Counted from the stretch's first letter, positions 2,589-12,784 are shown. The stretch is 64,000 nt of DNA from Gammaproteobacteria bacterium (GCA_028819565.1 JAPPLD010000006.1:9299-73298), one strand, 5' to 3'. The notes: a model not told the origin generated them from the letters alone. Numbers and translations are program-made.

Positions 2589-2790
2589 TTTTCCGAGAGC
2601 CAAGAAACGTCCGGACCGGTTGTCGGCAACCCTCGTCCTTTTCATGCGATGGATGGATGCCGGCAAATCCGGCCGAATGGATGCCCGGATGTGGGATGTC
2701 GTGCCTAGGCAGGCGGCCGCCGAAGAGGGGATGTACAGGGGACTGGCATGGTCCAAAAGCGGCAGAATTTCAACCCGCGACCGGCCATTT

Positions 2791-2827
2791 GGGAATTATG
2801 TAGCAAAATCTGCAAGCGCAGGTTTCA
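2791..2827. repeat. left terminal inverted repeat of the IS1595-family element
   Basis: 37/37 bp match to the reverse complement of 5434-5470; preceded by the 8-bp target-site duplication GGCCATTT. Confidence 0.8.
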
Positions 2828-2955
2828 GCGTTTCTTGACCAGCCGATAGCGGCGGTTCAATTCCTCGTTTGACGGCATCCGGTTCTTGTACAGGTCTGGG
2901 CGGTGCGGCTTCTTCAAAAGCACCTTGCGCACGGCCTCGGTGAAGTCGTCCAGTT

Positions 2956-4155
2956 TCATTGCGTAGCCCTCCATTCGGCCATTGTTTTGCTTCCCTTGCT
3001 TCGGTTGCACCCGGAGCAGAGCAGTTGGAGATTGTCGGCGTGATCCGTCCCTCCGCGCGAGCGCGGCAGGATATGGTCAACGTCCATGACGCGGAACGGG
3101 AAATGCGTCTCGCACCCGGCGCACACGCCCTCCTGCTCGCCATACAGCCTATGGCGGTGCGTCCGGTAGTTCGGCAGTTCGCCCATGTCCGTCCGCACGG
3201 GCGGCTTTTCCAGCGCGATTGCGCCAGCAAACAGTTTCCCCCGATCCTCGGCTATCCGTTCGTCCACGAGTTTGATGGCGAGTGGCGAAAGGTCGATGCC
3301 CGCCCACTGGCGACCTAGCCGGTCTGCTACCACCAGCGCAGTAGCGCATCCGCAGAATGGATCTAAAACAAGGTCGCCGGGGTCGGTGCTGGCCTTGACG
3401 ATCCGCTCCAGCAGGGCAAGCGGCTTTTGTGTGGGGTAGCCTAGACGCTCTTTTGACGATCCGGCAATAATCGAAATGTCCCAAACATCGCGCATCGGCA
3501 AACCTTTGGTCGGCTTGTCAATTACGATCTTTCGCGTTCGGGTTTCAGGGTCTAGTATTTGGGTCTTTCCCTTGAACCGCTTCAAATAACTCTCGCTCGG
3601 CGGCTCGTAACTCACATTGAAAGTATTGTCGCCGCCCGCATAAAACAGGATCACATCGTGCATCGTTTGGAAATTACTGCTTTTGGATGGCCAACGGCGA
3701 TACGACCAGATAACCTCGTTTCTGAATTTCCCTTTTCCAAATACAGCATCGAGCATCAGTTTCAGATAGTGGCTGGCAGTCGGGTCGCAGTGCAGGTAGA
3801 TGCTCCCCGTGTCTTTTAGAACACGCCGCATTTCCATCAGCCGAACGGCCATGAAGATCAGGTAGGACTGCATACCCTTGCCGTGCGCCTGACGCGCCGC
3901 CTCTATCACTGAATACGCTGCCGGGTTGCGGTCGGCCAGTTCGCCGTGTTCGTGGACATCGACATCGTCCAGCGTCCACGCATCTTTGAATGACGCGCCC
4001 GCCGCCTTGCTTCCTATCGGGGCTTCGTAGGTGCGGTTCGAGTTGAACGGCGGATCAAGGTAGATCAGGTCGATACATTCCGAATTGATGCCGCGCAGGA
4101 CGGGCAGGTTGTCTCCCGTCCATACGCTCTCGCTGGCGAAGTTGGCTTCACTCAA
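2956..4155 (-). CDS. N6A/N4C DNA methyltransferase (beta-class, PF01555-like) fused to a C-terminal HNH endonuclease domain
   Basis: Motif IV DPPF (LIYLDPPFNS) lies N-terminal to motif I (VLDPFCGCATALV), i.e. beta-class order. The C-terminal block CAGCETH…DHILPRSRGGTDHADNLQLLCSGCNRSKG is a classic HNH. Apparent TTG start; the start overlaps the transposase stop (TTGA). Confidence 0.75.
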   Translation of the reverse strand: MSEANFASESVWTGDNLPVLRGINSECIDLIYLDPPFNSNRTYEAPIGSKAAGASFKDAWTLDDVDVHEHGELADRNPAAYSVIEAARQAHGKGMQSYLIFMAVRLMEMRRVLKDTGSIYLHCDPTASHYLKLMLDAVFGKGKFRNEVIWSYRRWPSKSSNFQTMHDVILFYAGGDNTFNVSYEPPSESYLKRFKGKTQILDPETRTRKIVIDKPTKGLPMRDVWDISIIAGSSKERLGYPTQKPLALLERIVKASTDPGDLVLDPFCGCATALVVADRLGRQWAGIDLSPLAIKLVDERIAEDRGKLFAGAIALEKPPVRTDMGELPNYRTHRHRLYGEQEGVCAGCETHFPFRVMDVDHILPRSRGGTDHADNLQLLCSGCNRSKGSKTMAEWRATQ

Positions 4156-5075
4156 GACACCAGCGCCTTGTAGGTGAGCCGCTTGCCCCCGAAGCCCCGC
4201 ACAAGGGCTTCCATGCGGTCGATGGTGTCAACCTCGCAGTTGCCCTCGTTGAGCCGGAACGCAAACTCATTGATGTAGCGATGGCAGTGCTTCTTCGACC
4301 AGTTGTGGTACACGCCATTGAAGCCGCGTTTCAGAACCGCCCATACCGACTCGATGCCGTTCGTGTGCGCCATGCCATCGACATATTCCTTTGCCGAATG
4401 ATTGACGGTGTGATGCCGATGGGCGATGCCAGCGTAGCATCCTGCTTCGTCCGTGCAGATGGTGGAGCCGGGGCGGACATGCTCGCGTACAACCGACTGC
4501 ACGGTATCCCGGTCGGTGTTCTGAATAGGCTTGGCGACGGTTTTGCCGCCACGCTCGCGCATCCCCAGCACGGCCTGTTTGCCGACTGCGCCGCGTCCGG
4601 CTTTCAGTTTCTTGTGCGAGTGTTTATTGTCCTCTTTTCCGCCCAGATAGGCTTCGTCAATCTCCACTACGCCGAACAGTTTGCCGCCATCCTCGGCGCA
4701 AGCCTCGCGGATGCGCTGGAGCAGATACCAGGCCGTCTTCTGTTGTACGCCCAGTTCCTTTGACAGTTGCATGCTGCTGATACCCTTACGGGCCGTCAGC
4801 ATGTAGTAGAGGGTTACGACCCAGTGCCGGGTGTCGAGCTTGGACGAGTGCATGACCGTTCCGGTCTTTACGGTGAAATTCTTTCGGCAGGACTTGCACC
4901 AGTAGGTGAACGGCTTGGACTTGGGGCGGCTGATTTTCTCGGTGCCGCCGCAGTGCGAGCAGGTCGGTGTGCCGCCCCAACGAACCTGTTCCAGCCACTC
5001 TATCGCCCTCTCTTCGGTGTCGAACATCTGCATGAGTTGAACGATGCTGATTGTTTCTGCCTTACGCTTGGACAT
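4152..5075 (-). CDS. IS1595-family (ISXO2-like) DDE transposase
   Basis: 307 aa. N-terminal Zn-finger CSHCGG…CKSCRK, followed by an ISXO2-like core (QLSKELGVQQKTAWYLLQRIREA…DEAYLGGK…). Good SD (GGAG) 7 nt upstream of the ATG. Confidence 0.8.
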   Translation of the reverse strand: MSKRKAETISIVQLMQMFDTEERAIEWLEQVRWGGTPTCSHCGGTEKISRPKSKPFTYWCKSCRKNFTVKTGTVMHSSKLDTRHWVVTLYYMLTARKGISSMQLSKELGVQQKTAWYLLQRIREACAEDGGKLFGVVEIDEAYLGGKEDNKHSHKKLKAGRGAVGKQAVLGMRERGGKTVAKPIQNTDRDTVQSVVREHVRPGSTICTDEAGCYAGIAHRHHTVNHSAKEYVDGMAHTNGIESVWAVLKRGFNGVYHNWSKKHCHRYINEFAFRLNEGNCEVDTIDRMEALVRGFGGKRLTYKALVS

Positions 5076-5099
5076 GTCTTATCTCCGGTTGTGCAGATT

Positions 5100-5128
5100 A
5101 TTATATACCATATAATTACAGGTGTCAA
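5100..5128 (-). promoter_or_regulatory. consensus sigma70 promoter for the transposase (TTGACA-17-TATAAT on minus strand)
   Basis: Reverse complement of 5123-5128 = TTGACA; 17-nt spacer; reverse complement of 5100-5105 = TATAAT. Lies ~25 nt upstream of the tnp ATG at 5075. Overlaps a weaker divergent plus-strand promoter-like site (TTGTGC 5089-5094 / TATAAT 5111-5116). Confidence 0.5.
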
Positions 5129-5142
5129 GCACAATTCTCACT

Positions 5143-5436
5143 ATGAGATTCATCACCCGGATCATGGCCAAAATGACGACACAACAGCGGCTCGACTGTT
5201 TGCTAAAGCACTTCAATAAACTCGCCGAAAATCAGGGCGACATGATGCAGTTGGACGGTGAAGACATCACCTTGCTAATGGACAAATGCGGCTTTGTCAG
5301 CAGGAGCGAAATCGCGTTCTACTTGGATTCACTCGCCACCCTCGGACTAATGCGAAGCAGTTGTTCCGCCGACCACACCTTGCTTGCCGCGTCGATCACA
5401 ATTGAAGGATATTGCCGATTAGACGAGATTCAGTGA
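5143..5436 (+). CDS. small hypothetical ORF inside the IS element, divergent from tnp
   Basis: ORF 5122(GTG)/5143(ATG)-5436. No SD; no recognisable domain. Its stop lies inside the right IR. May be non-coding. Confidence 0.2.
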   Translation: MRFITRIMAKMTTQQRLDCLLKHFNKLAENQGDMMQLDGEDITLLMDKCGFVSRSEIAFYLDSLATLGLMRSSCSADHTLLAASITIEGYCRLDEIQ

Positions 5437-5470
5437 AACCTGCGCTTGCAGATTTTGCTACATAATTCCC
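5434..5470. repeat. right terminal inverted repeat of the IS1595-family element
   Basis: Reverse complement of 2791-2827; followed by the target-site duplication GGCCATTT (5471-5478). Confidence 0.8.
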
Positions 5471-5601
5471 GGCCATTTCACGTGAAGGCCGTCCATGCTA
5501 AACTCCCATCAACGCCATCCCCCCCGAAAACGGAATTGAGGAGGGACTCCGAACCACCTTTAGGGTTGGAATAAATAAGGCTGACCGACCTGGAACACAT
5601 C

Positions 5602-5844
5602 ATGATAATGGACAACATTCAGTTGATCATCCTGATCGTGACGATCCTCGGCAGCGTGTTCGCGCATGGCAGGATTATTCTGGGCCGCATGTCGGCTCTG
5701 GAAGATCGTGTGTCCGCCGTAGAAAGCCGCCTGTCGGCCGTGGAAAGTCGCCTTTCACATATGGAAGGATTGTTCGAAGGATTCCGTGCTGCCGGAATCT
5801 TGTCGCCTTCTCAGCCCGATAAAAATCAGACACAAGCTGCTTAG
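5602..5844 (+). CDS. small membrane-anchored coiled-coil protein (hypothetical)
   Basis: 80 aa. N-terminal hydrophobic helix, then tandem RVSAVESRLSAVESRLS heptad-like repeats. Confidence 0.35.
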   Translation: MIMDNIQLIILIVTILGSVFAHGRIILGRMSALEDRVSAVESRLSAVESRLSHMEGLFEGFRAAGILSPSQPDKNQTQAA

Positions 5845-6039
5845 GCAGATTGTTTCGGGAGCACTGGGGGACGGTCAATCGCCGCCTCTCGGTGCATCGG
5901 CGCATCGGGCGTTAAGAGATTTCCAGATATCGGGCTATTCGGCTTTCCACAGGCGCACCGTCGGGGAAATCGCCGAAATCCCCGTATGCTAAAGTAATTG
6001 CATCACTTTTTGGCGGGGTTTAACCACGGAATCACCCAC

Positions 6040-7845
6040 ATGAGGAAATTCTGGAAAAAAACCGCCAAAAAAATCCCGAGATACTTAAAAACCCGGTTCC
6101 TGCCATTCCTCGAATGGTTGCCGGAACTACGTTCATCTTCCGTCATGAAGGCGGACCTCATCGCCGGTACCACCGTCGCCCTGGTGATCGTCCCGCAATC
6201 AATGGCTTATGCCCAGTTGGCAGGCTTGCCGACTTATTACGGCCTGTATGCCTCGTTCTTACCGGTAATCGTTTCGGCCGTGTTCGGGTCGTCCCGCCAG
6301 TTGGCGACCGGTCCGGTCGCCGTTATCTCGCTGCTGACCGCATCGGCCCTGGAGCCGATCGCATCATCGGGATCGGAAGGCTATATCGCCTACGCAATTA
6401 TGCTGGCCTTGATGGTTGGCGTGTTCCAGATTGCTCTGGGGCTTCTACGCCTAGGGGTACTGGTCGATTTCCTGTCGCATCCGGTGGTCTTGGGTTTCAC
6501 CAATGCCGCGGCTCTGATTATCGCCACGTCCCAGTTAGGCAAGTTGCTGGGGGTGGTTGCCGAGAAAAGCGAACACCACTACGAGACGGTCTGGAACATC
6601 CTTGTTGCAGCATCCGAGTTCACGCACTGGCCGACCGTGGCTATGAGCGTTGTGGCCATTGGTCTAATGTATTTTCTGCCAAGGTTCTGGCAAAAAATCC
6701 CTGCCATCTTGGTCGCGGCAGTCCTGACCACGGTGGCGTCCTGGGCCATGGATTTCAAAGAGAACTTTGGCGGAGCCATTGTTGGAGCAATTCCAGAGGG
6801 CCTTCCAAGTTTTGTTCTGCCCACCGTCGATTTTAGTTACCTGCTGGACTTGGCGGGGGTCGCGATCGCCATCTCGCTGATCGGCTTTATGGAAGCCTTT
6901 TCCGTGGCCAAGTCCATGTCGATGAGAAAGACGCGCCAACATCTGGATGCGAACCAGGAGTTGCTGGGTCAGGGCCTCGGCAATCTGGCAGCCAGCATGT
7001 TTCAGGGCTATGCGGTTTCCGGTTCGTTTTCCCGTTCTGCGGTGAACTTGAGCGCCGGGGCGGTCACCGGTTTTTCCTCTGTCGTGACCGGCCTGCTCGT
7101 CGCCGCGACCCTGCTGTTCTTGACCCCGATCCTGTACCACATGCCGCAGGCCATGCTGGCATCGGTCATCATCATCGCCGTAGCGGGCCTGATCCGGGTC
7201 AAGCCGATCATTGATGCCTGGAAAGTCCAGAAACACGATGCAGTCGTGGCGGTCATCACATTCGTATTGACGCTGGCGTTCGCGCCGCACCTGGAAAACG
7301 GTATCATCATCGGAGTGCTTTTGGCGCTCGGACTGTTCGTCTACCGCATCATGCGACCGAACATCAGCCTGATTTCGCGTGACAGCATGGGCAAGTTTGC
7401 TGATGCCCGGCGGCGGATTCTTGAGACTTGCTGTAGCATCTCAATGCTGCGCTTTGACGGACCACTGTTCTTCGCCAACACGGGTTATTTCAGCGATCAG
7501 GTCCTGCGGGCCGCTGCTTCGACTGAGGGCTTGCGCTACATCATCGTGGACGCGAGCAGCATCACAGAGATCGACTCGACCGGGGAGCATATGCTGCACA
7601 GCCTTGCGCGAGAACTGGTGGATTCCGAGATCACTTTCATCGTGACCCGTGCTAAGCCGGAGATCATGGAGATTTTTGAGCGCACAGGGTTCGCCAGTCC
7701 GGAGTGGAGTGAGTATTTCACGGCAACCCGGGAAGAGGCAATGGATTATGCGATGAAGCAGATGAAGATCTGCGGAGACAAGCCTTGTGGCTGTACGCGG
7801 GACAAGTGCCCGATGATGGCCAAGCCCAAACCCGGGACGATATAA
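6040..7845 (+). CDS. SulP-family sulfate/anion permease with C-terminal STAS domain
   Basis: Multi-TM protein with the SulP N-terminal signature (…DLIAGTTVALVIVPQSMAYAQLAGLP…) and a C-terminal STAS-like domain. The ATG at 6040 is preferred over the TTG at 5998. Cys-rich tail CGDKPCGCTRDKCP. Confidence 0.85.
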   Translation: MRKFWKKTAKKIPRYLKTRFLPFLEWLPELRSSSVMKADLIAGTTVALVIVPQSMAYAQLAGLPTYYGLYASFLPVIVSAVFGSSRQLATGPVAVISLLTASALEPIASSGSEGYIAYAIMLALMVGVFQIALGLLRLGVLVDFLSHPVVLGFTNAAALIIATSQLGKLLGVVAEKSEHHYETVWNILVAASEFTHWPTVAMSVVAIGLMYFLPRFWQKIPAILVAAVLTTVASWAMDFKENFGGAIVGAIPEGLPSFVLPTVDFSYLLDLAGVAIAISLIGFMEAFSVAKSMSMRKTRQHLDANQELLGQGLGNLAASMFQGYAVSGSFSRSAVNLSAGAVTGFSSVVTGLLVAATLLFLTPILYHMPQAMLASVIIIAVAGLIRVKPIIDAWKVQKHDAVVAVITFVLTLAFAPHLENGIIIGVLLALGLFVYRIMRPNISLISRDSMGKFADARRRILETCCSISMLRFDGPLFFANTGYFSDQVLRAAASTEGLRYIIVDASSITEIDSTGEHMLHSLARELVDSEITFIVTRAKPEIMEIFERTGFASPEWSEYFTATREEAMDYAMKQMKICGDKPCGCTRDKCPMMAKPKPGTI

Positions 7846-7973
7846 CTGCTGGAATCGTGGCCCGCAGCCCATTTTTAGGCATTCATTCGGACAGTTCGGG
7901 GAAGGGCGCGGTGTATAATGGCTGCCAGACGAGCGACTCTTCGCGCATATCTTTCTGGGATTTCATAAACGTC

Positions 7974-8297
7974 ATGCACGGACGCGGATTTCTTCTTGCG
8001 GCTTCTCTCGTATTGGGATTAACTCCTGCTCTCGTAGCTGCTGACGAAGCGGCGATCGAACGCGGACGCACTTTGGCAGGGACCTGCCTCGGATGCCACG
8101 GCGTCCCCAGTTACACCAATGTCTACCCGACCTTCCACGTGCCGAAACTAGGTGGTCAGCATGCGGAGTACATCGTGGCAGCCCTGAAAACTTATAAATC
8201 CGGTGAGCGCAAGCATCCGACCATGCGAGCGCATTCGGTCAGGCTTTCGGGAGAACAGATCCGAGACATCGCGACCTATTTCTCTTCCCTCAAATGA
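7974..8297 (+). CDS. monoheme cytochrome c (class I, c4/c553-like)
   Basis: Signal peptide, then the heme-binding motif CLGCHG. Start taken at an internal ATG after the SulP stop. Confidence 0.7.
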   Translation: MHGRGFLLAASLVLGLTPALVAADEAAIERGRTLAGTCLGCHGVPSYTNVYPTFHVPKLGGQHAEYIVAALKTYKSGERKHPTMRAHSVRLSGEQIRDIATYFSSLK

Positions 8298-8653
8298 ACC
8301 GTCCATTCCGTTCTTTCCTGGTTTCAGTTGCGGTCGCGCTGAGTGTCGGGCTTTCAGGCCCCGTGCTGGCGGGCGATCCGGTGGCAGGCAAGGAGAAGTC
8401 TGTGACCTGCCAAGCCTGTCATGGTCCGGATGGCAACAGCCCGATCCCGACGTTCCCGATCATTGCCGGACAGCATAAGGATTATCTGTTGCACAGCATG
8501 CTGAGCTACAAGACCGGCGAGCGCACCAATCCGATCATGGTTGCCATCGTGCAACCGCTGTCGGAAGAGGATATTGAAGATCTGGCCGCGTATTACGCGT
8601 CTCAGGAAGGCTTGTACCAGATTGACGCGGGCCTGGGCTCCGGTACTCCCTGA
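8294..8653 (+). CDS. monoheme cytochrome c (class I)
   Basis: Signal peptide, then CQACHG heme-binding motif. ATGA overlap with the upstream cytochrome gene. Confidence 0.7.
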   Translation: MNRPFRSFLVSVAVALSVGLSGPVLAGDPVAGKEKSVTCQACHGPDGNSPIPTFPIIAGQHKDYLLHSMLSYKTGERTNPIMVAIVQPLSEEDIEDLAAYYASQEGLYQIDAGLGSGTP

Positions 8654-8654
8654 A

Positions 8655-8894
8655 TCAACCGGTCTTCTCGCTTTCTTCCGGCGTCAACGGTCGGATCGTC
8701 AAGGCATGCAGTGATCCGTCCGCGATCTGTTCCCGGACGGTGGCATAGACCAATTGGTGGCGTTTGACGGACATCAGGCCCTCGAACGCATTACTGACCA
8801 CCGTCGCCTCAAACTTCCCCTCACTACCGCTCACGGCCACTTCGGCATCGGGCATGCCGGCCTGGATCAGATTTTCGACTTGCTGTGAGTCCAC
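8655..8894 (-). CDS. BolA/IbaG-family protein
   Basis: 79 aa with a BolA-like fold signature (…AEVAVSGSEGKFEATVVSNAFEGLMSVKRHQLVYATV…). Confidence 0.7.
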   Translation of the reverse strand: MDSQQVENLIQAGMPDAEVAVSGSEGKFEATVVSNAFEGLMSVKRHQLVYATVREQIADGSLHALTIRPLTPEESEKTG

Positions 8895-9079
8895 TGAGTC
8901 TCCCTAAAGAAAGTGCACCTGTATTTCCTATGATACAGGCCATTCCTGACAGATCGTAGAAATCACGATCCCGATCGGGACGCGCTTGAGGAGTAAAGGG
9001 GGTTAAAATGTCAATATGCCTATGGCCTGCCTGCCGTTGGCAGGGTAAGCCCTATCCCGGAAGTTACCGCGCTAGAACG

Positions 9080-9385
9080 ATGAATCCTGAAATTTCGATC
9101 CCCAAGGAAAACATTGCCCGCTTCTGCCAAAGTCACGGGATTAGGCGGCTCTCTGTCTTTGGCTCGGCATTGCGGGATGATTTTGGCCCGGATAGCGACA
9201 TTGACATGCTGGTTGAATTTGAACCGGATCACATTCCCGGGCTTCTCGGGATCGCAGGCATGGAACTGGAATTATCGGATTTGTTGGGAGGCCGGAAGGT
9301 AGATCTGCGGACTCCCGCAGACCTAAGCCGATATTTTCGCCAAGAAGTCATGGAAATGGCGGAAGTCCAGTATGCTCAAGAATGA
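9080..9385 (+). CDS. nucleotidyltransferase (MNT-type antitoxin-like, HepT/MNT family)
   Basis: [28 protein letters not shown] is the minimal nucleotidyltransferase motif (GS…D.D). Confidence 0.75.
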
Positions 9386-9419
9386 CGAAGTGCCATTTCA
9401 AATTATCATGCATATTTGA
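9372..9419 (+). pseudogene. remnant of a HepT-like (DUF86) toxin gene, truncated after 15 codons
   Basis: An ATG overlaps the 3' end of the nucleotidyltransferase gene by 14 nt, the typical MNT-HepT arrangement. The [18 protein letters not shown] stops after 15 aa and is followed by AT-rich non-coding DNA. Confidence 0.3.
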
Positions 9420-9682
9420 AATACCGAGTTAAATTTGGAGACATACAATAATCCGCAAGGTATTGCGGCGAAGGTGTCCAGCCATGCGGAGTACGAGAAC
9501 CGAAAGCCGACCGAAGAGGAACGGCATGAACGATGGCAACTGGAAAAGAGGAGACCACACTGAAAAAAGTATTTTTCTTCCTTCTATATACAGTCGGATC
9601 AATCATCCTTTTAGTAATTCTTCTAGCAATGATTTCACCATTTTTGCGGTGATTTGCGGATTATTGTGTTTTCCCTGATGCA

Positions 9683-10039
9683 TTAAATCCGCATGTCCAA
9701 AGTAATCTCGGAATACAGCGCACGAGGGGCGATTTTGCCTTTCTGGCCTTTTTCCAGTTGGACGAGGCCGTATTGCTCTAGGGTATGGAGTGTTCTTGAG
9801 AGGTTTGACTTGGCGCGTCCCGAAATTTCGGCCAATTCGGCCAGTGATTCCGGTTCCTTTTCCGCGATTGTCTTCAAGAGCATTCGATTCCGATCAGACA
9901 AAACTTTAGCGAAACTTTCGAGAGACAGGAACCATACCTTTGGTTCCCCTCGCTTTGGCTTGTATTCACCGTTAGCAATAGCAAGGCTGCGAGCCTTCAT
10001 TTCTGCGTAACTGGCAATGCCTACTTTTAGAGTCTTCAT
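9683..10039 (-). CDS. HTH DNA-binding protein, putative antitoxin (TumA / HVO_A0114-like, from memory)
   Basis: 118 aa with a winged-HTH-like segment (…LAELAEISGRAKSNLSRTLHTLEQYGLV…). 4-bp overlap with the upstream ORF, operon-like. Confidence 0.5.
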   Translation of the reverse strand: MKTLKVGIASYAEMKARSLAIANGEYKPKRGEPKVWFLSLESFAKVLSDRNRMLLKTIAEKEPESLAELAEISGRAKSNLSRTLHTLEQYGLVQLEKGQKGKIAPRALYSEITLDMRI

Positions 10040-10410
10040 GATTTTGTCCTCCGCTCTCTGAGCACCGCATCGACTTCAGTCCAAAAATCTGCTAGCAATG
10101 TAGCAGCATCTTGGTATTGATAAGGCCGGATTGTACGATGCCGATGCTTATGATCGTACGTTTTTTGCCGCCGGCCGCTCGGTCCAGATATAGAACGGAC
10201 AGGATGGGCATTATCAAAGCCGACAAGTCGCTCGCCTTTAGCCCCATGCAATGTAAGGGAGTAATCGATCCCATGTGGTCTGTCCTGGGTTGGCGGCACA
10301 CGCCTCACGCGAAATTTCACCCAATGCTGGCCTTCTCGGTCAACCACGAAAGTCTCTCCGTCCAAATCCAACAGCGTATCTAGGCTCGAATCGCGTGGCG
10401 ATTGTGTCAT
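10036..10410 (-). CDS. putative toxin partner (TumE-like, from memory) of the downstream HTH protein
   Basis: 124-aa ORF translationally coupled (ATGA-type 4-bp overlap) to the HTH gene. The family assignment rests on recollection only. Confidence 0.4.
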   Translation of the reverse strand: MTQSPRDSSLDTLLDLDGETFVVDREGQHWVKFRVRRVPPTQDRPHGIDYSLTLHGAKGERLVGFDNAHPVRSISGPSGRRQKTYDHKHRHRTIRPYQYQDAATLLADFWTEVDAVLRERRTKS

Positions 10411-10418
10411 TGAAATAG

Positions 10419-10437
10419 GTTATCACACAATGATAAC
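10419..10437. promoter_or_regulatory. perfect palindrome GTTATCA-cacaa-TGATAAC immediately upstream of the TA-like operon start (candidate operator)
   Basis: 7-bp perfect inverted repeat with a 5-bp spacer, 9 nt upstream of the ATG at 10410. Confidence 0.35.
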
Positions 10438-10575
10438 AATTTTGGGAATTGCTGGAGGAAAGGAAAATCGACCGTGTTCCGGATTCTGCCATAGGAGACA
10501 GGCGAGGCGACTTCGCGAGAGCGTTGAACATGTAAATTTAACATGCGACTTTATATTATCGTGTATATTTAAAGT

Positions 10576-11754
10576 ATGTATGGAAGAAGCCTGGTTTTGC
10601 CGCCACCCGGGGAAGAAAACTTTTTCCTGTGGGGACCTCGTCAGACGGGCAAGAGCACGCTCCTGAAGCAGTGCTATCCGAAAAGCCGTTGGCTTGATTT
10701 GCTGAAGGCAGACGAATTCAAGCGCTATGCCGACAAACCAGAGTCTTTGCGCTTGGAGATGGAGAAAGAAGGATTGCCGGAAAAGGGGAGCCAGATCGTC
10801 ATTGACGAGATACAGAAAGTCCCGGCACTGCTCGACGAGGTGCACTGGATGATCGAAAACTACGGGCTACGTTTCGCTTTGTGCGGGTCGAGTGCACGCA
10901 AGGTGAGGCGTGGTGCTGCCAACTTGCTGGGTGGACGGGCGATCCGATACGAGTTGTTCGGCTTGACGGCGAATGAGTTGGGAACCGAATTCGATTTGTC
11001 CCGGATGCTTAATCATGGCTATCTACCACAGATGTACGAGACAGATCAACCGGCGAGGTTGCTGGAGGCATACGTTGCCGACTATCTCAAAGAGGAAATT
11101 TTGGCAGAAGGCTTGGTTCGGCACTTCCCCGATTTTTCAGGTTTCTTGGACGCAGCGGCACTGTGCGACGGGGAGGTCATCAATTTCTCCAACATCGCAA
11201 GCGATTGCGCCGTATCGGTTCCCACCGCGAAAGCCTATTTCGGCATTTTGGAGGACACGCTGCTCGGTCGTTGGTTGCCAGCCTATCGCAAACGGCAGAA
11301 ACGGCGAGTAATCCATGCACCGAAATTCTATTTCTCCGATGTGGGCATCGTGAACCGATTAGCGCACAGGGGAGACATACTTCCAGGCTCCGATGTTTAC
11401 GGGAAGGCGTTCGAGAACTGGGTCTTCCATGAACTTTCTTCCTTTTGTGCCTACTGGGAACTGTATGAAGAATTGTCCTATTGGAGACTTTCGGGTGGGA
11501 CTGAGGTAGATTTCGTTCTGGGAGACATGCGGCTCGCAATTGAAGCAAAAGCCAGCACCCGGATCACACCAAAACACCTTCGAGGGCTGCGTAGTTTGGT
11601 TAAAGACAACCCTTCATCCTGTCGTCGTGTCGTCGTGTGCCTTGAACCGCGGGCATGGCGTACGGACGATGGCATCGACATTTTGCCGGCAACAACCTTC
11701 ATCGATCACCTTTGGGGTGGTGATCTTGTAGCTAGTCCAGTTATGGGCAATTAG
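10576..11754 (+). CDS. AAA+ ATPase, DUF4143/COG1373-type ATP-binding protein
   Basis: Walker A GPRQTGKSTLL near the N-terminus. Length and layout are typical of the AAA+ ATPase/DUF4143 family. Confidence 0.7.
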   Translation: MYGRSLVLPPPGEENFFLWGPRQTGKSTLLKQCYPKSRWLDLLKADEFKRYADKPESLRLEMEKEGLPEKGSQIVIDEIQKVPALLDEVHWMIENYGLRFALCGSSARKVRRGAANLLGGRAIRYELFGLTANELGTEFDLSRMLNHGYLPQMYETDQPARLLEAYVADYLKEEILAEGLVRHFPDFSGFLDAAALCDGEVINFSNIASDCAVSVPTAKAYFGILEDTLLGRWLPAYRKRQKRRVIHAPKFYFSDVGIVNRLAHRGDILPGSDVYGKAFENWVFHELSSFCAYWELYEELSYWRLSGGTEVDFVLGDMRLAIEAKASTRITPKHLRGLRSLVKDNPSSCRRVVVCLEPRAWRTDDGIDILPATTFIDHLWGGDLVASPVMGN

Positions 11755-11764
11755 ACTAATTCTC

Positions 11765-12784
11765 ATGCTAGAAAACGTTAGGGTTCGACTTAGGGGCTGG
11801 ATTGCGGTCACGCCTGGCTGGTTTTGGGCCGCAGTAGTCTTATTTGTACTGATAGCAGTTTTTATACCTCCACTAATCTGTTGGCATTGGCCCGCCACTA
11901 ATGGGTTCGAATCGTGTAGCTCAACGATTCGCAATTTTGGTCTTGTATCCGCAGCAGTTATTGCTTTACCGCTGGCTATATGGCGCAGTTGGGTTGCTGA
12001 GCGACAAGCCGGCACAGCAGAACACGGACTGCTGAATGAACGCTATCAAAAGGGTGCTGATATGCTTGGTAGCAAAGTTCTTTCCGTTCGACTCGGAGGC
12101 ATTTATGCTCTGGAGAGATTAGCCGCTGAGCACCCAAAGATTTATCATATCCAAATTATGCAGCTTTTCTGCGCGTTCGTGCGCGATCAGGCTGCTGCAA
12201 AACAGCGACTCGATTTTGATGCTGTCATGCGGGCCATTAGCGCTCGTAGTTATGAGCAAAGGGACATAGAGAAAGAAAAAGACTATCAGCTAAATTTGAA
12301 TGGGGCAGATTTTCGTGGATTGGATCTCTACAATTTGGATTTGTCGGGGATATCGTTTACGCAAGCAGATTTTTCAGATGCTTTTCTCGTTAATACAGAT
12401 TTTTCTAATTCCACATTTTTTAACGCGAAACTATCAGGAGCAAGACTATCAAGCGCAGACTTATCTGGTGCCAGTTTCTTGGATGCGGATCTATCACAGA
12501 TCAAGGATTCAAATGCAGCCAATTTCTCAAGCGCGAGTTTATCTAATGCAAATCTAACTCAGGCATGTTTGTATGGCGCAAATTTCGAGAATACAGATTT
12601 GACAGGGGCAAACCTTACTAGCGCTATCTTTCACAAGGACGGCATCCTTGCAAAGGGCCTGACGCAGCGGCAAATTGCCTTTGCGCAAGCAAATCCAGAA
12701 GGCTCTCTTCCGATTATTGATGGGCTAATAGATACTGAAACTGGAGAAATGATTCTTTGGTCCAAAAGACCGACAGTTGTCTAG
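11765..12784 (+). CDS. membrane-anchored pentapeptide-repeat protein
   Basis: N-terminal TM helix, then >25 tandem pentapeptide repeats (…ADFRGLDLYNLDLSGISFTQADFSDAFLVNTDFSNSTFFNAKLSGARLSSADLSGASF…). GC drops over the repeat region. Confidence 0.75.
   Translation: MLENVRVRLRGWIAVTPGWFWAAVVLFVLIAVFIPPLICWHWPATNGFESCSSTIRNFGLVSAAVIALPLAIWRSWVAERQAGTAEHGLLNERYQKGADMLGSKVLSVRLGGIYALERLAAEHPKIYHIQIMQLFCAFVRDQAAAKQRLDFDAVMRAISARSYEQRDIEKEKDYQLNLNGADFRGLDLYNLDLSGISFTQADFSDAFLVNTDFSNSTFFNAKLSGARLSSADLSGASFLDADLSQIKDSNAANFSSASLSNANLTQACLYGANFENTDLTGANLTSAIFHKDGILAKGLTQRQIAFAQANPEGSLPIIDGLIDTETGEMILWSKRPTVV

Follow-up and report, generated by a model that had tools for sequence, protein, structure and literature searches.

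A 2,680-bp IS1595-family transporter insertion sequence carrying a methyltransferase-HNH fusion gene in a gammaproteobacterial genome

Positions 2791-5470 of a 64,000-nucleotide stretch from a Gammaproteobacteria bacterium (GCA_028819565.1, JAPPLD010000006.1:9299-73298; the whole stretch is called the window below) are almost certainly, in identity as well as in mobility, an intact and autonomous transporter insertion sequence (IS) of the IS1595 family, 2,680 bp in length. The element holds four open reading frames (ORFs): a transposase gene, a gene for a methyltransferase (MTase) fused to an HNH nuclease domain (MTase-HNH) and the small orf44, all on the minus strand, and orf90 on the plus strand. 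ISs tend to be seen as little more than a transposase gene; the autonomous one described here mobilises a complete nuclease-methylase gene, and its relatives are spread over many phyla, in genomes that apparently come from marine sponges. The architecture of an IS with passenger genes is already known, while the MTase-HNH cargo and the extra backbone gene were not found described in the open literature searched. For the explanation as a whole, that is, an IS1595-family transporter IS together with the regulation and the cargo role proposed below, we estimate a probability of about 0.75.

Boundaries, empty site and recurrence of the element

The element is bounded by two perfect terminal inverted repeats (IRs) of 37 bp, complementary at 37 of 37 positions. 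Allowing up to three mismatches, these two were the sole matches to the 37-mer in the window, and none was obtained in 100 shuffles. Each IR is abutted by one copy of the octamer GGCCATTT, and the IR tip, GGGAATTAT, is common to the IRs of related elements. By itself, the octamer is a common word (3 occurrences in the window against 2.8 expected); the weight therefore rests on its position and on the comparison with an empty site.

This site was located through an exact-sequence lookup of the flanking 407-aa DUF7986 protein, which led to L084 (ENA ERZ25069580), a 1.85-Mb contig of a closely related strain from another sample. The same flanking genes were present in L084 and the element was absent; the site reads ...CGACCGGCCATTTCACGTGAAGGCC..., with a single copy of GGCCATTT. 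After subtraction of the 2,680-bp element and one repeat, the window aligned to L084 without gaps over 6,709 bp, with 97.6% identity. The uninterrupted site with one octamer indicates that the insertion is real and recent and that it duplicated 8 bp. The insertion is intergenic, between the DUF7986 gene and an 80-aa ORF, and disrupted no gene.

A sequence-only reading of the same stretch had pointed to the perfect 37-bp repeats and to the 8-bp direct repeat on both flanks, and it had predicted an empty site in a related strain. The IR pair proved to be unique in the window, and the empty site was found as foreseen. The outcome that it had named as a refutation, IRs or a duplication not reproduced in other copies, did not arise: IRs of the same type with their own 8-bp duplications recur around transposase and MTase-HNH genes in many other genomes. 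No identical copy was found. There is no second copy in the window, and the exact transposase and MTase-HNH proteins are recorded at one site only.

Termini of the form GGGRATTAT..., accompanied by 8-bp duplications of their own, were observed in at least 12 other genomes from several phyla. Such IRs, with independent duplications, bracket a transposase and an MTase-HNH gene in L002, L012, L016, L054, L061, L073, L081, L171, and L176 (Table 1). Altogether, 13 related elements besides the window element have 8-bp duplications, and the 14 duplications pooled are 72% A+T, compared with a G+C content of 56-59% for the window. The first 20 bases of the L012 IR are those of the window IR, and 23 of the first 24 agree; the transposases of the two elements are only 60% identical. 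P0008, an MTase-HNH protein 83% identical to that of the window, was found at two different sites within one assembly, where the shared 2 kb are 99.85% identical. L173 (4444-6421) and L174 (4444-6422) are two copies of a unit of transposase, MTase-HNH and a 61-aa ORF that stand at separate sites in a single assembly, with 99.85% identity over 2 kb; the L173 transposase is broken into two ORFs and the left part differs, and L174 has IRs and no clear 8-bp duplication.

Several details of the insertion site are recorded here in their own right. Flank identity to L084 was uneven, at 99.8% on the left (1-2790; 6 mismatches in 2,790 bp) and 96.0% on the right (5479-9397; 156 in 3,929), which suggests that a recombination boundary lies close to the insertion site or coincides with it. 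The element entered an imperfect hairpin, GGCC(AT)TTCAC/GTGAAGGCC, which corresponds to 2775-2790 and 5471-5495 in the window and to 7409-7440 in L084. At both ends of the element, the perfect 37-bp IR stops exactly where coding sequence starts: orf44 and orf90 read outward, and their TGA stop codons are the innermost three nucleotides of the respective IRs (2825-2827 and 5434-5436).

Table 1 Features of the element in the window and of the related loci
Feature	Position	Strand	Remarks
Left 8-bp target-site duplication	2783-2790		GGCCATTT; abuts IR; single copy at L084 empty site
Cargo-side terminal IR	2791-2827		GGGAATTATGTAGCAAAATCTGCAAGCGCAGGTTTCA; 37/37 complementary to 5434-5470
orf44, 44-aa basic ORF	2959..2825	-	ATG overlaps MTase-HNH stop (ATGA); called as gene in L001
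MTase-HNH fusion, 399 aa	4155..2956	-	Beta-class N6A/N4C methyltransferase and HNH nuclease; PF01555, PF14279/PF01844
HNH nuclease domain, aa 345-394	2974..3123	-	CxxC...DH...N...CxxCN; PF14279/PF01844
Methyltransferase domain, aa 28-295	3271..4074	-	PF01555; motif IV DPPF, aa 34-37; motif I DPFCGCAT, aa 265-272
IS1595-family transposase, 307 aa	5075..4152	-	N-terminal zinc ribbon and DDE domain; PF12760, PF12762, NF033547
Palindrome ATTATAT-ACC-ATATAAT	5100-5116		Arms are the -10 hexamers of both promoters; candidate operator, putative role
Consensus sigma-70-type promoter TTGACA-17-TATAAT	5128..5100	-	12/12; 25-53 bp upstream of transposase ATG
orf90, ~90 aa, predicted winged helix	5164-5436	+	Divergent from transposase; alternative ATG at 5173 gives 87 aa
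Transposase-side terminal IR	5434-5470		Complementary to 2791-2827
Right 8-bp target-site duplication	5471-5478		GGCCATTT; abuts IR; single copy at L084 empty site
L002			Transposase and MTase-HNH; 8-bp duplication CAAATGAA
L012			Transposase and MTase-HNH; 8-bp duplication AAATCTTT
L016			Transposase and MTase-HNH; 8-bp duplication ATTGCTTA
L054			Transposase and MTase-HNH; 8-bp duplication TCTGTTTT
L061			Transposase and MTase-HNH; 8-bp duplication ATATAAAG
L073			Transposase and MTase-HNH; 8-bp duplication TATCGTTG
L081			Transposase and MTase-HNH; 8-bp duplication TTTCTGAT
L176			Transposase and MTase-HNH; 8-bp duplication TTGAAGAT
L171			Transposase, orf91, MTase-HNH and 61-aa ORF, in this order; duplication CAAAGAAG
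L040			Transposase and MTase-HNH; different IR, CGTAATTATCCCC...; 8-bp duplication GAACTTTT
L170	2412-5338		Cargo a 235-aa protein with DPPH motif, putative methyltransferase; duplication AAACCGAG
L169	1845-5348		Cargo of several ORFs, no assigned identity; duplication TTCACAAA
L167	5001-7129		orf90 and IS1595 transposase beside KilA-N/BstA_C gene
L014	5869-7407		Transposase-less cassette of 1,539 bp with MTase-HNH alone; IS1595-type IRs, 28/29; duplication TTCATTTT

Transposase, promoter and accessory reading frames

Profile searches with the transposase gave matches to PF12760 (6e-10), PF12762 (DDE_Tnp_IS1595, ISXO2-like; 1.3e-46), and NCBIfam NF033547 (2.7e-59), the last two with scores exceeding the curated cut-offs. 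When the protein was compared with 19 related transposases, C39, C42, C60, C63, D140, D209, E242, and K249 were conserved, the four zinc-ribbon cysteines being invariant or almost so. The transposase thus keeps all catalytic residues and looks functional. Its best annotated plasmid relatives carry the label 'IS1595 family transposase' at no more than 45% identity, and no match was obtained in PADLOC-DB.

The minus-strand genes follow one another with stop/start overlaps at both junctions, TTGA between the transposase and MTase-HNH and ATGA between MTase-HNH and orf44. Four residues that do not vary in the family, N5, W12, G14, and D15, are retained with the TTG and with no other possible start of MTase-HNH. 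The transposase promoter sits in the 88-bp gap between the divergent transposase and orf90 genes, and its -35 block, TTGTGCTTGACA, is also conserved upstream of the transposase in L170. On the plus strand, a perfect TATAAT is present at 5111-5116, with just TTGTGC as the -35 element, and this combination fell below the scan threshold. Of the features that had been read from the DNA beforehand, the family of the transposase, the fusion of MTase and HNH as cargo, and the TTGA overlap were all recovered, as was the consensus promoter on the minus strand; the divergent promoter-like site turned out to be weaker, and the conserved orf90 and orf44 had been overlooked.

Thirteen homologues of orf90 were found, each of approximately 90 aa and 56-82% identical. 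All four of the contexts inspected adjoin IS1595 transposases, and those in L169, L170, and L171 are bounded by IRs and target-site duplications and contain differing cargo; around the homologue at L167, no IR pair was found. Since the orf90 homologues lie, in all of these contexts, beside IS1595 transposases with varying cargo, orf90 belongs to the IS backbone. The backbone is thus formed by the transposase and the ~90-aa protein, and the cargo varies between elements. The AlphaFold2 (AF2) model of Orf90 had a predicted local distance difference test score (pLDDT) of 81 and a helix-helix-helix-beta-hairpin layout. The top Foldseek matches were all winged helices of the MarR, PadR, and CodY types, at E >= 0.01 and TM scores of about 0.5-0.6. 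From the model, we infer that Orf90 is probably a DNA-binding regulator, and it may be conjectured that the palindrome at 5100-5116 is its most obvious target.

Small ORFs homologous to orf44 occupy the same position in L081 (E 2.7e-6) and in L012. Neither orf90 nor orf44 had a match in Pfam, NCBIfam, or PADLOC. At least two more families of small basic ORFs (50-75 aa) were observed at the IR-proximal position of orf44 in related elements (L005 7221-7379, L170 2446-2622, and L073 7276-7452; L171 6467-6652, L061 5693-5917, and L002 7315-7530). L170, which is without MTase-HNH, still has such an IR-proximal small basic ORF.

The MTase-HNH cargo, its distribution and its possible role

The MTase-HNH protein matched PF01555 with an E-value of 1e-45 and PF14279/PF01844 with about 1e-11. 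In an alignment of 36 homologues, the methyltransferase motifs DPPF and DPFxGCAT were invariant, and so were C345, C348, D360, H361, N375, C380, C383, and N384 of the HNH domain, which is of the Cas9/IscB/group II intron subtype. Conservation reached 0.85-1.0 in the catalytic parts and 0.83-0.94 in the HNH region and dropped to 0.40-0.65 at aa ~150-235, where beta-class enzymes hold their target-recognition region. Because the HNH residues are invariant and the domain is as conserved as the methyltransferase core, the nuclease is kept by selection. By this alignment, both cargo domains are under purifying selection and the region between them is variable. The closest solved structures are those of the beta-class N6-adenine MTases M.BceJIV, MboIIA, RsrI, and CcrM; the Foldseek search with the model of the fusion returned beta-class methyltransferases only. 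In PADLOC-DB, the protein matched the MTase_II/III and orphan-MTase models, with no defence-system model beyond generic methyltransferases. No separate cognate endonuclease gene was found inside the element, and none recurs beside the 80 homologous loci described below.

More than 8,000 homologues of MTase-HNH were detected in a metagenome-scale protein set, the best 120 showing full-length identities of 59-83%. Among species-representative genomes, a scan yielded at least 592 confirmed loci, and genomic context was analysed for the best 80. Nearly all of these 80 are metagenome-assembled genomes (MAGs) with names pointing to marine sponges, the habitat being deduced from record titles and bin codes rather than from metadata. 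The hosts among them include Poribacteria, Poriferihabitaceae, Porisulfidus, many Dehalococcoidia and Chloroflexota, Acidobacteriota, Alpha- and Gammaproteobacteria, and one Nitrosopumilus archaeon. The archaeal locus, L071 (6001-7344), is a full-length homologue with 43% identity in a MAG titled Nitrosopumilus sp., and its presence there implies transfer between domains. Among 72,556 plasmids of cultured bacteria, full-length fusions were practically missing; they were rare in IMG/VR, with three among the best 80 matches, the remainder being methyltransferases only. Tandem arrays of two or three MTase-HNH paralogues per genome were also observed (L055 4481-10278, L064 6-3681, and L043 1092-7173), the paralogues being 41-53% identical to the window protein.

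An IS1595-type transposase lies within 2 kb of the MTase-HNH gene at approximately 19-22 of the 80 loci. Clustering of the neighbouring ORFs revealed the IS1595 transposase (16 loci) as the sole recurrent neighbour, the rest being unrelated housekeeping genes; no recurrent partner, such as a separate nuclease or an ATPase, was found around the 80 homologues. The similarities of transposase and cargo are almost uncorrelated across 19 elements (Pearson 0.24 for pairwise identities). The window element and L174 share 45% identity in the transposase and 83% in MTase-HNH, the window element and L081 share 61% and 46%, and L052 and L067 share 75% and 42%, respectively. The order of the two genes also differs among elements (same strand, convergent, or divergent). 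The near-absent correlation and the varying gene order indicate that the cargo has been captured by, or exchanged between, IS backbones repeatedly. The same cargo is also linked to the sister family IS1: at L039 (3419-8208), MTase-HNH lies by an IS1-like transposase within a unit of 4,790 bp that has IRs starting GGTAGTG... and a 7-bp flanking repeat, and at L022 (5288-6004), an IS1-like ORF abuts the MTase start.

We propose that the strong promoter would drive one compact, translationally coupled operon of transposase, MTase-HNH, and orf44, and that the divergent winged-helix protein Orf90 would bind the palindrome over both -10 boxes and thereby throttle expression of the transposase and the cargo. 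The cargo would be an active adenine or N4-cytosine methyltransferase of the beta class, with its sequence specificity determined by the variable middle region, and the tethered HNH domain would nick or cut DNA near unmethylated copies of the recognition site. As a single-polypeptide restriction-modification (R-M) module, it would defend the host against phage and other foreign DNA, and post-segregational killing by the cargo would stabilise the IS. Given the maintained HNH domain and the lack of a partner gene, a single-chain R-M module fits best; this role in restriction-modification or addiction is put forward tentatively, at somewhat less than even odds. The variable recognition regions and the tandem paralogue arrays would fit diversifying defence specificities. 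The functional roles offered in the sequence-only reading (selfish R-M, addiction, or anti-restriction) are likewise drawn from sequence and may or may not apply. A broader version, which we consider rather unlikely in its entirety, would see in these genes a new minimal class of single-polypeptide R-M enzymes that transporter ISs of the IS1595 (and IS1-like) type shuttle from one bacterial phylum to another, and to archaea, in sponge holobionts, combining phage defence with IS-stabilising addiction, and in Orf90 a timer of expression after transfer that resembles R-M controller proteins.

Other roles for the cargo were weighed against this proposal. The gene could be a selfish, homing-type one, in which the MTase protects the resident genome or just binds DNA, the HNH domain cuts naive alleles or other DNA, spread occurs by recombination, and the IS is one vehicle of several. 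Most family members are indeed solitary among housekeeping genes and without IRs, identities of 60-83% across phyla and one archaeal MAG imply frequent horizontal transfer, the discordant similarities of cargo and transposase show the gene moving between backbones, and the HNH subtype is that of group II intron, IscB, and Cas9 proteins. However, the solitary copies showed neither a conserved insertion site nor homology in their flanks, fusion to a full, conserved methyltransferase is not normal for homing endonucleases, and a variable specificity region with tandem arrays looks more like diversifying defence genes. We consider this role improbable. We judge it equally improbable that the cargo is in essence an orphan methyltransferase that protects the mobile DNA and its host epigenetically or by anti-restriction, with an HNH domain that is accessory (for example, a nickase in repair or replication) or decaying. 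That PADLOC recognises the methyltransferase part only, and that the closest relatives of this domain in viral contigs and plasmids are HNH-less orphans with 37-53% identity, agrees with such a role; the invariance of the catalytic and zinc-binding residues of the HNH domain in 36 homologues, and its conservation at the level of the MTase core, do not.

An involvement of the HNH domain in transposition, with second-strand cleavage at the IS ends like that by TnsA in Tn7, would account for the tight operon linkage and the overlapping stop and start codons seen with the transposase in several elements. Yet L169 and L170 have the same IR type and no HNH gene, ordinary IS1595 members encode one gene only, the transposase (PMC8101967), no transposase lies close to most MTase-HNH genes, and gene order and orientation relative to the transposase vary. 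The idea was rejected on account of the clean 8-bp duplications of these HNH-less sister elements, and its chance is very slight. Smaller still, to the point of being negligible, is the chance that host repeats placed by coincidence around ordinary chromosomal genes account for the IR pair and the direct repeat: an 8-mer alone is not rare, but no 37-mer pair is expected, the same IR type recurs elsewhere with different duplications, and the exact empty site in the sister strain L084 refutes it.

Several observations weigh against the transporter IS with the regulation and R-M role proposed here. Approximately 58 of the 80 nearest genomic homologues are solitary, with no recognisable IRs or transposase, so that the cargo does not depend on the IS; the GGGRWTTAY motif, sought at the borders of solitary genes as a sign of decayed ISs, is not generally present there. 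Translational coupling is not universal, the two genes being convergent, divergent, or 200-400 bp apart in other elements. The fold matches of Orf90 are weak and its binding to the operator is conjectural. With a single recorded copy of the exact element, current activity would appear unproven. The AF2 model of the fusion, built from a 36-sequence alignment, had a mean pLDDT of 64, falling below 50 in the linker and in some stretches of the HNH domain, and is too poor for judging the domain geometry, namely, whether the HNH domain reaches DNA bound by the MTase. In the literature, no biochemical or methylome data were found on any member of the MTase-HNH family.

The mobility of the element is solid, if unsurprising to IS specialists, and the role of MTase-HNH is a testable question; the pair formed by the carrier, ROBB21 scaffold_3736, and the empty-site strain, ERZ25069580 ctg105638, makes its methylation specificity accessible to testing with long-read data. 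If the fusion is a self-contained R-M enzyme, it would have the smallest architecture of that sort, would offer a direct mechanism for the spread of defence specificities in a host-associated community, and, as its recognition region is highly variable, would provide new sequence-specific methylase or nuclease reagents.

Beyond the element, the neighbourhood of the insertion (~130-2600 and 5600-12000) is rich in defence and toxin-antitoxin genes. The neighbours include a protein with Mrr_cat and NA-iREase1, the DUF7986 protein, a nucleotidyltransferase (with a HepT partner in L084), TumE with a helix-turn-helix (HTH) protein, and AAA_14/DUF4143.

Comparison with known systems

Members of the IS1595 family generate 8-bp duplications and have a transposase with a zinc finger and a DDE domain, the N-terminal zinc ribbon being missing only in the IS1016 group (PMC8101967). 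The window element has a DDE_Tnp_IS1595 domain, a zinc ribbon, an 8-bp duplication, and terminal IRs. In a classical IS, the transposase is the only ORF; the four ORFs found here place the element in the transporter-IS (tIS) subclass and do not exclude it from the IS1595 family (PMC3129680). It was from IS1595 elements that transporter ISs, which carry passenger genes, were first defined (Siguier, Gagnevin & Chandler 2009, as cited in PMC3129680, PMC7986276, and PMC2853133), so the architecture is less unusual than the sequence-only reading had implied. As in other IS1595 transporter ISs, genes unrelated to transposition lie inside the IRs: MTase-HNH and orf44 are enclosed, and all 2,680 bp are missing from the empty site. 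The element differs from them in its cargo, an uncharacterised MTase-HNH fusion, in its conserved ~90-aa winged-helix accessory gene and small terminal ORF, and in the apparent concentration of its lineage, judging by record names, in sponge-associated MAGs of many phyla.

The IR of the window element starts with GGGAATTAT, and K249 stands at +7 from the third catalytic residue, E242. The element may belong to the ISNwi1/ISNwi1+ subgroup (the '+' denoting passenger genes), in which the IR tip is ggnnatTAT and the catalytic signature is DDEK; its size of 2.7 kb lies within the ISNwi1+ range.

Marine sponges are a habitat enriched in transposases and R-M genes (PMC7848895, PMC4453008). No paper on IS1595 elements in sponge symbionts was found in the open literature, and in the open literature searched neither the MTase-HNH fusion nor the orf90 backbone gene nor the cross-phylum distribution was found described.

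Among R-M systems, the fusion resembles the Type IIG/IIC enzymes (MmeI, Eco57I, and BcgI-like), in which nuclease and methyltransferase share one chain with a variable recognition region and which work without a separate partner gene. In their canonical form, Type IIG enzymes combine a PD-(D/E)XK nuclease at the N-terminus with a gamma-class methyltransferase and a recognition domain, and they comprise ~900-1,100 aa. The window fusion, in contrast, has 399 aa; its motifs stand in beta-class order, with DPPF towards the N-terminus and motif I towards the C-terminus, and its HNH domain is C-terminal. It shares the motif order IV...I, the DPPF motif, and the fold with M.BceJIV, M.MboIIA, M.RsrI, and CcrM, which are without an HNH domain and have ~22-24% sequence identity over the aligned structures. 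In classical two-gene Type II R-M systems, a cognate endonuclease gene adjoins that of the methyltransferase; here, none was found within the element, and none recurs at the 80 homologous loci. A 2025 review of R-M systems mentions HNH only for modification-dependent enzymes (PMC12707154).

R-M genes and solitary modification genes in IS contexts have been documented before (PMC2853133). Furuta, Abe & Kobayashi (2010; PMC2853133) described IR-bounded R-M units that have 8-bp direct repeats and for which empty sites exist, among them a Type II unit in X. oryzae and a Type IIG + S unit in N. gonorrhoeae. The window element is similar to these units: its IRs enclose R-M-type genes, 8 bp of its target are duplicated, and a sister genome has the empty site. 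The earlier units have no transposase of their own, and are therefore non-autonomous, and contain conventional restriction and modification genes, whereas the window element is autonomous and has one fused gene. Their direct counterpart is L014, in which the IRs and the duplication surround MTase-HNH alone; a separate fragment of an IS1595 transposase was observed downstream of this cassette. L014 also resembles the mobile insertion cassettes (MICs), in which IRs surround passenger genes and a transposase is lacking (De Palmenaer et al. 2004, as cited in PMC3129680), since IS1595-type IRs and the duplication TTCATTTT flank its MTase-HNH gene. The window element differs from such cassettes in being autonomous.

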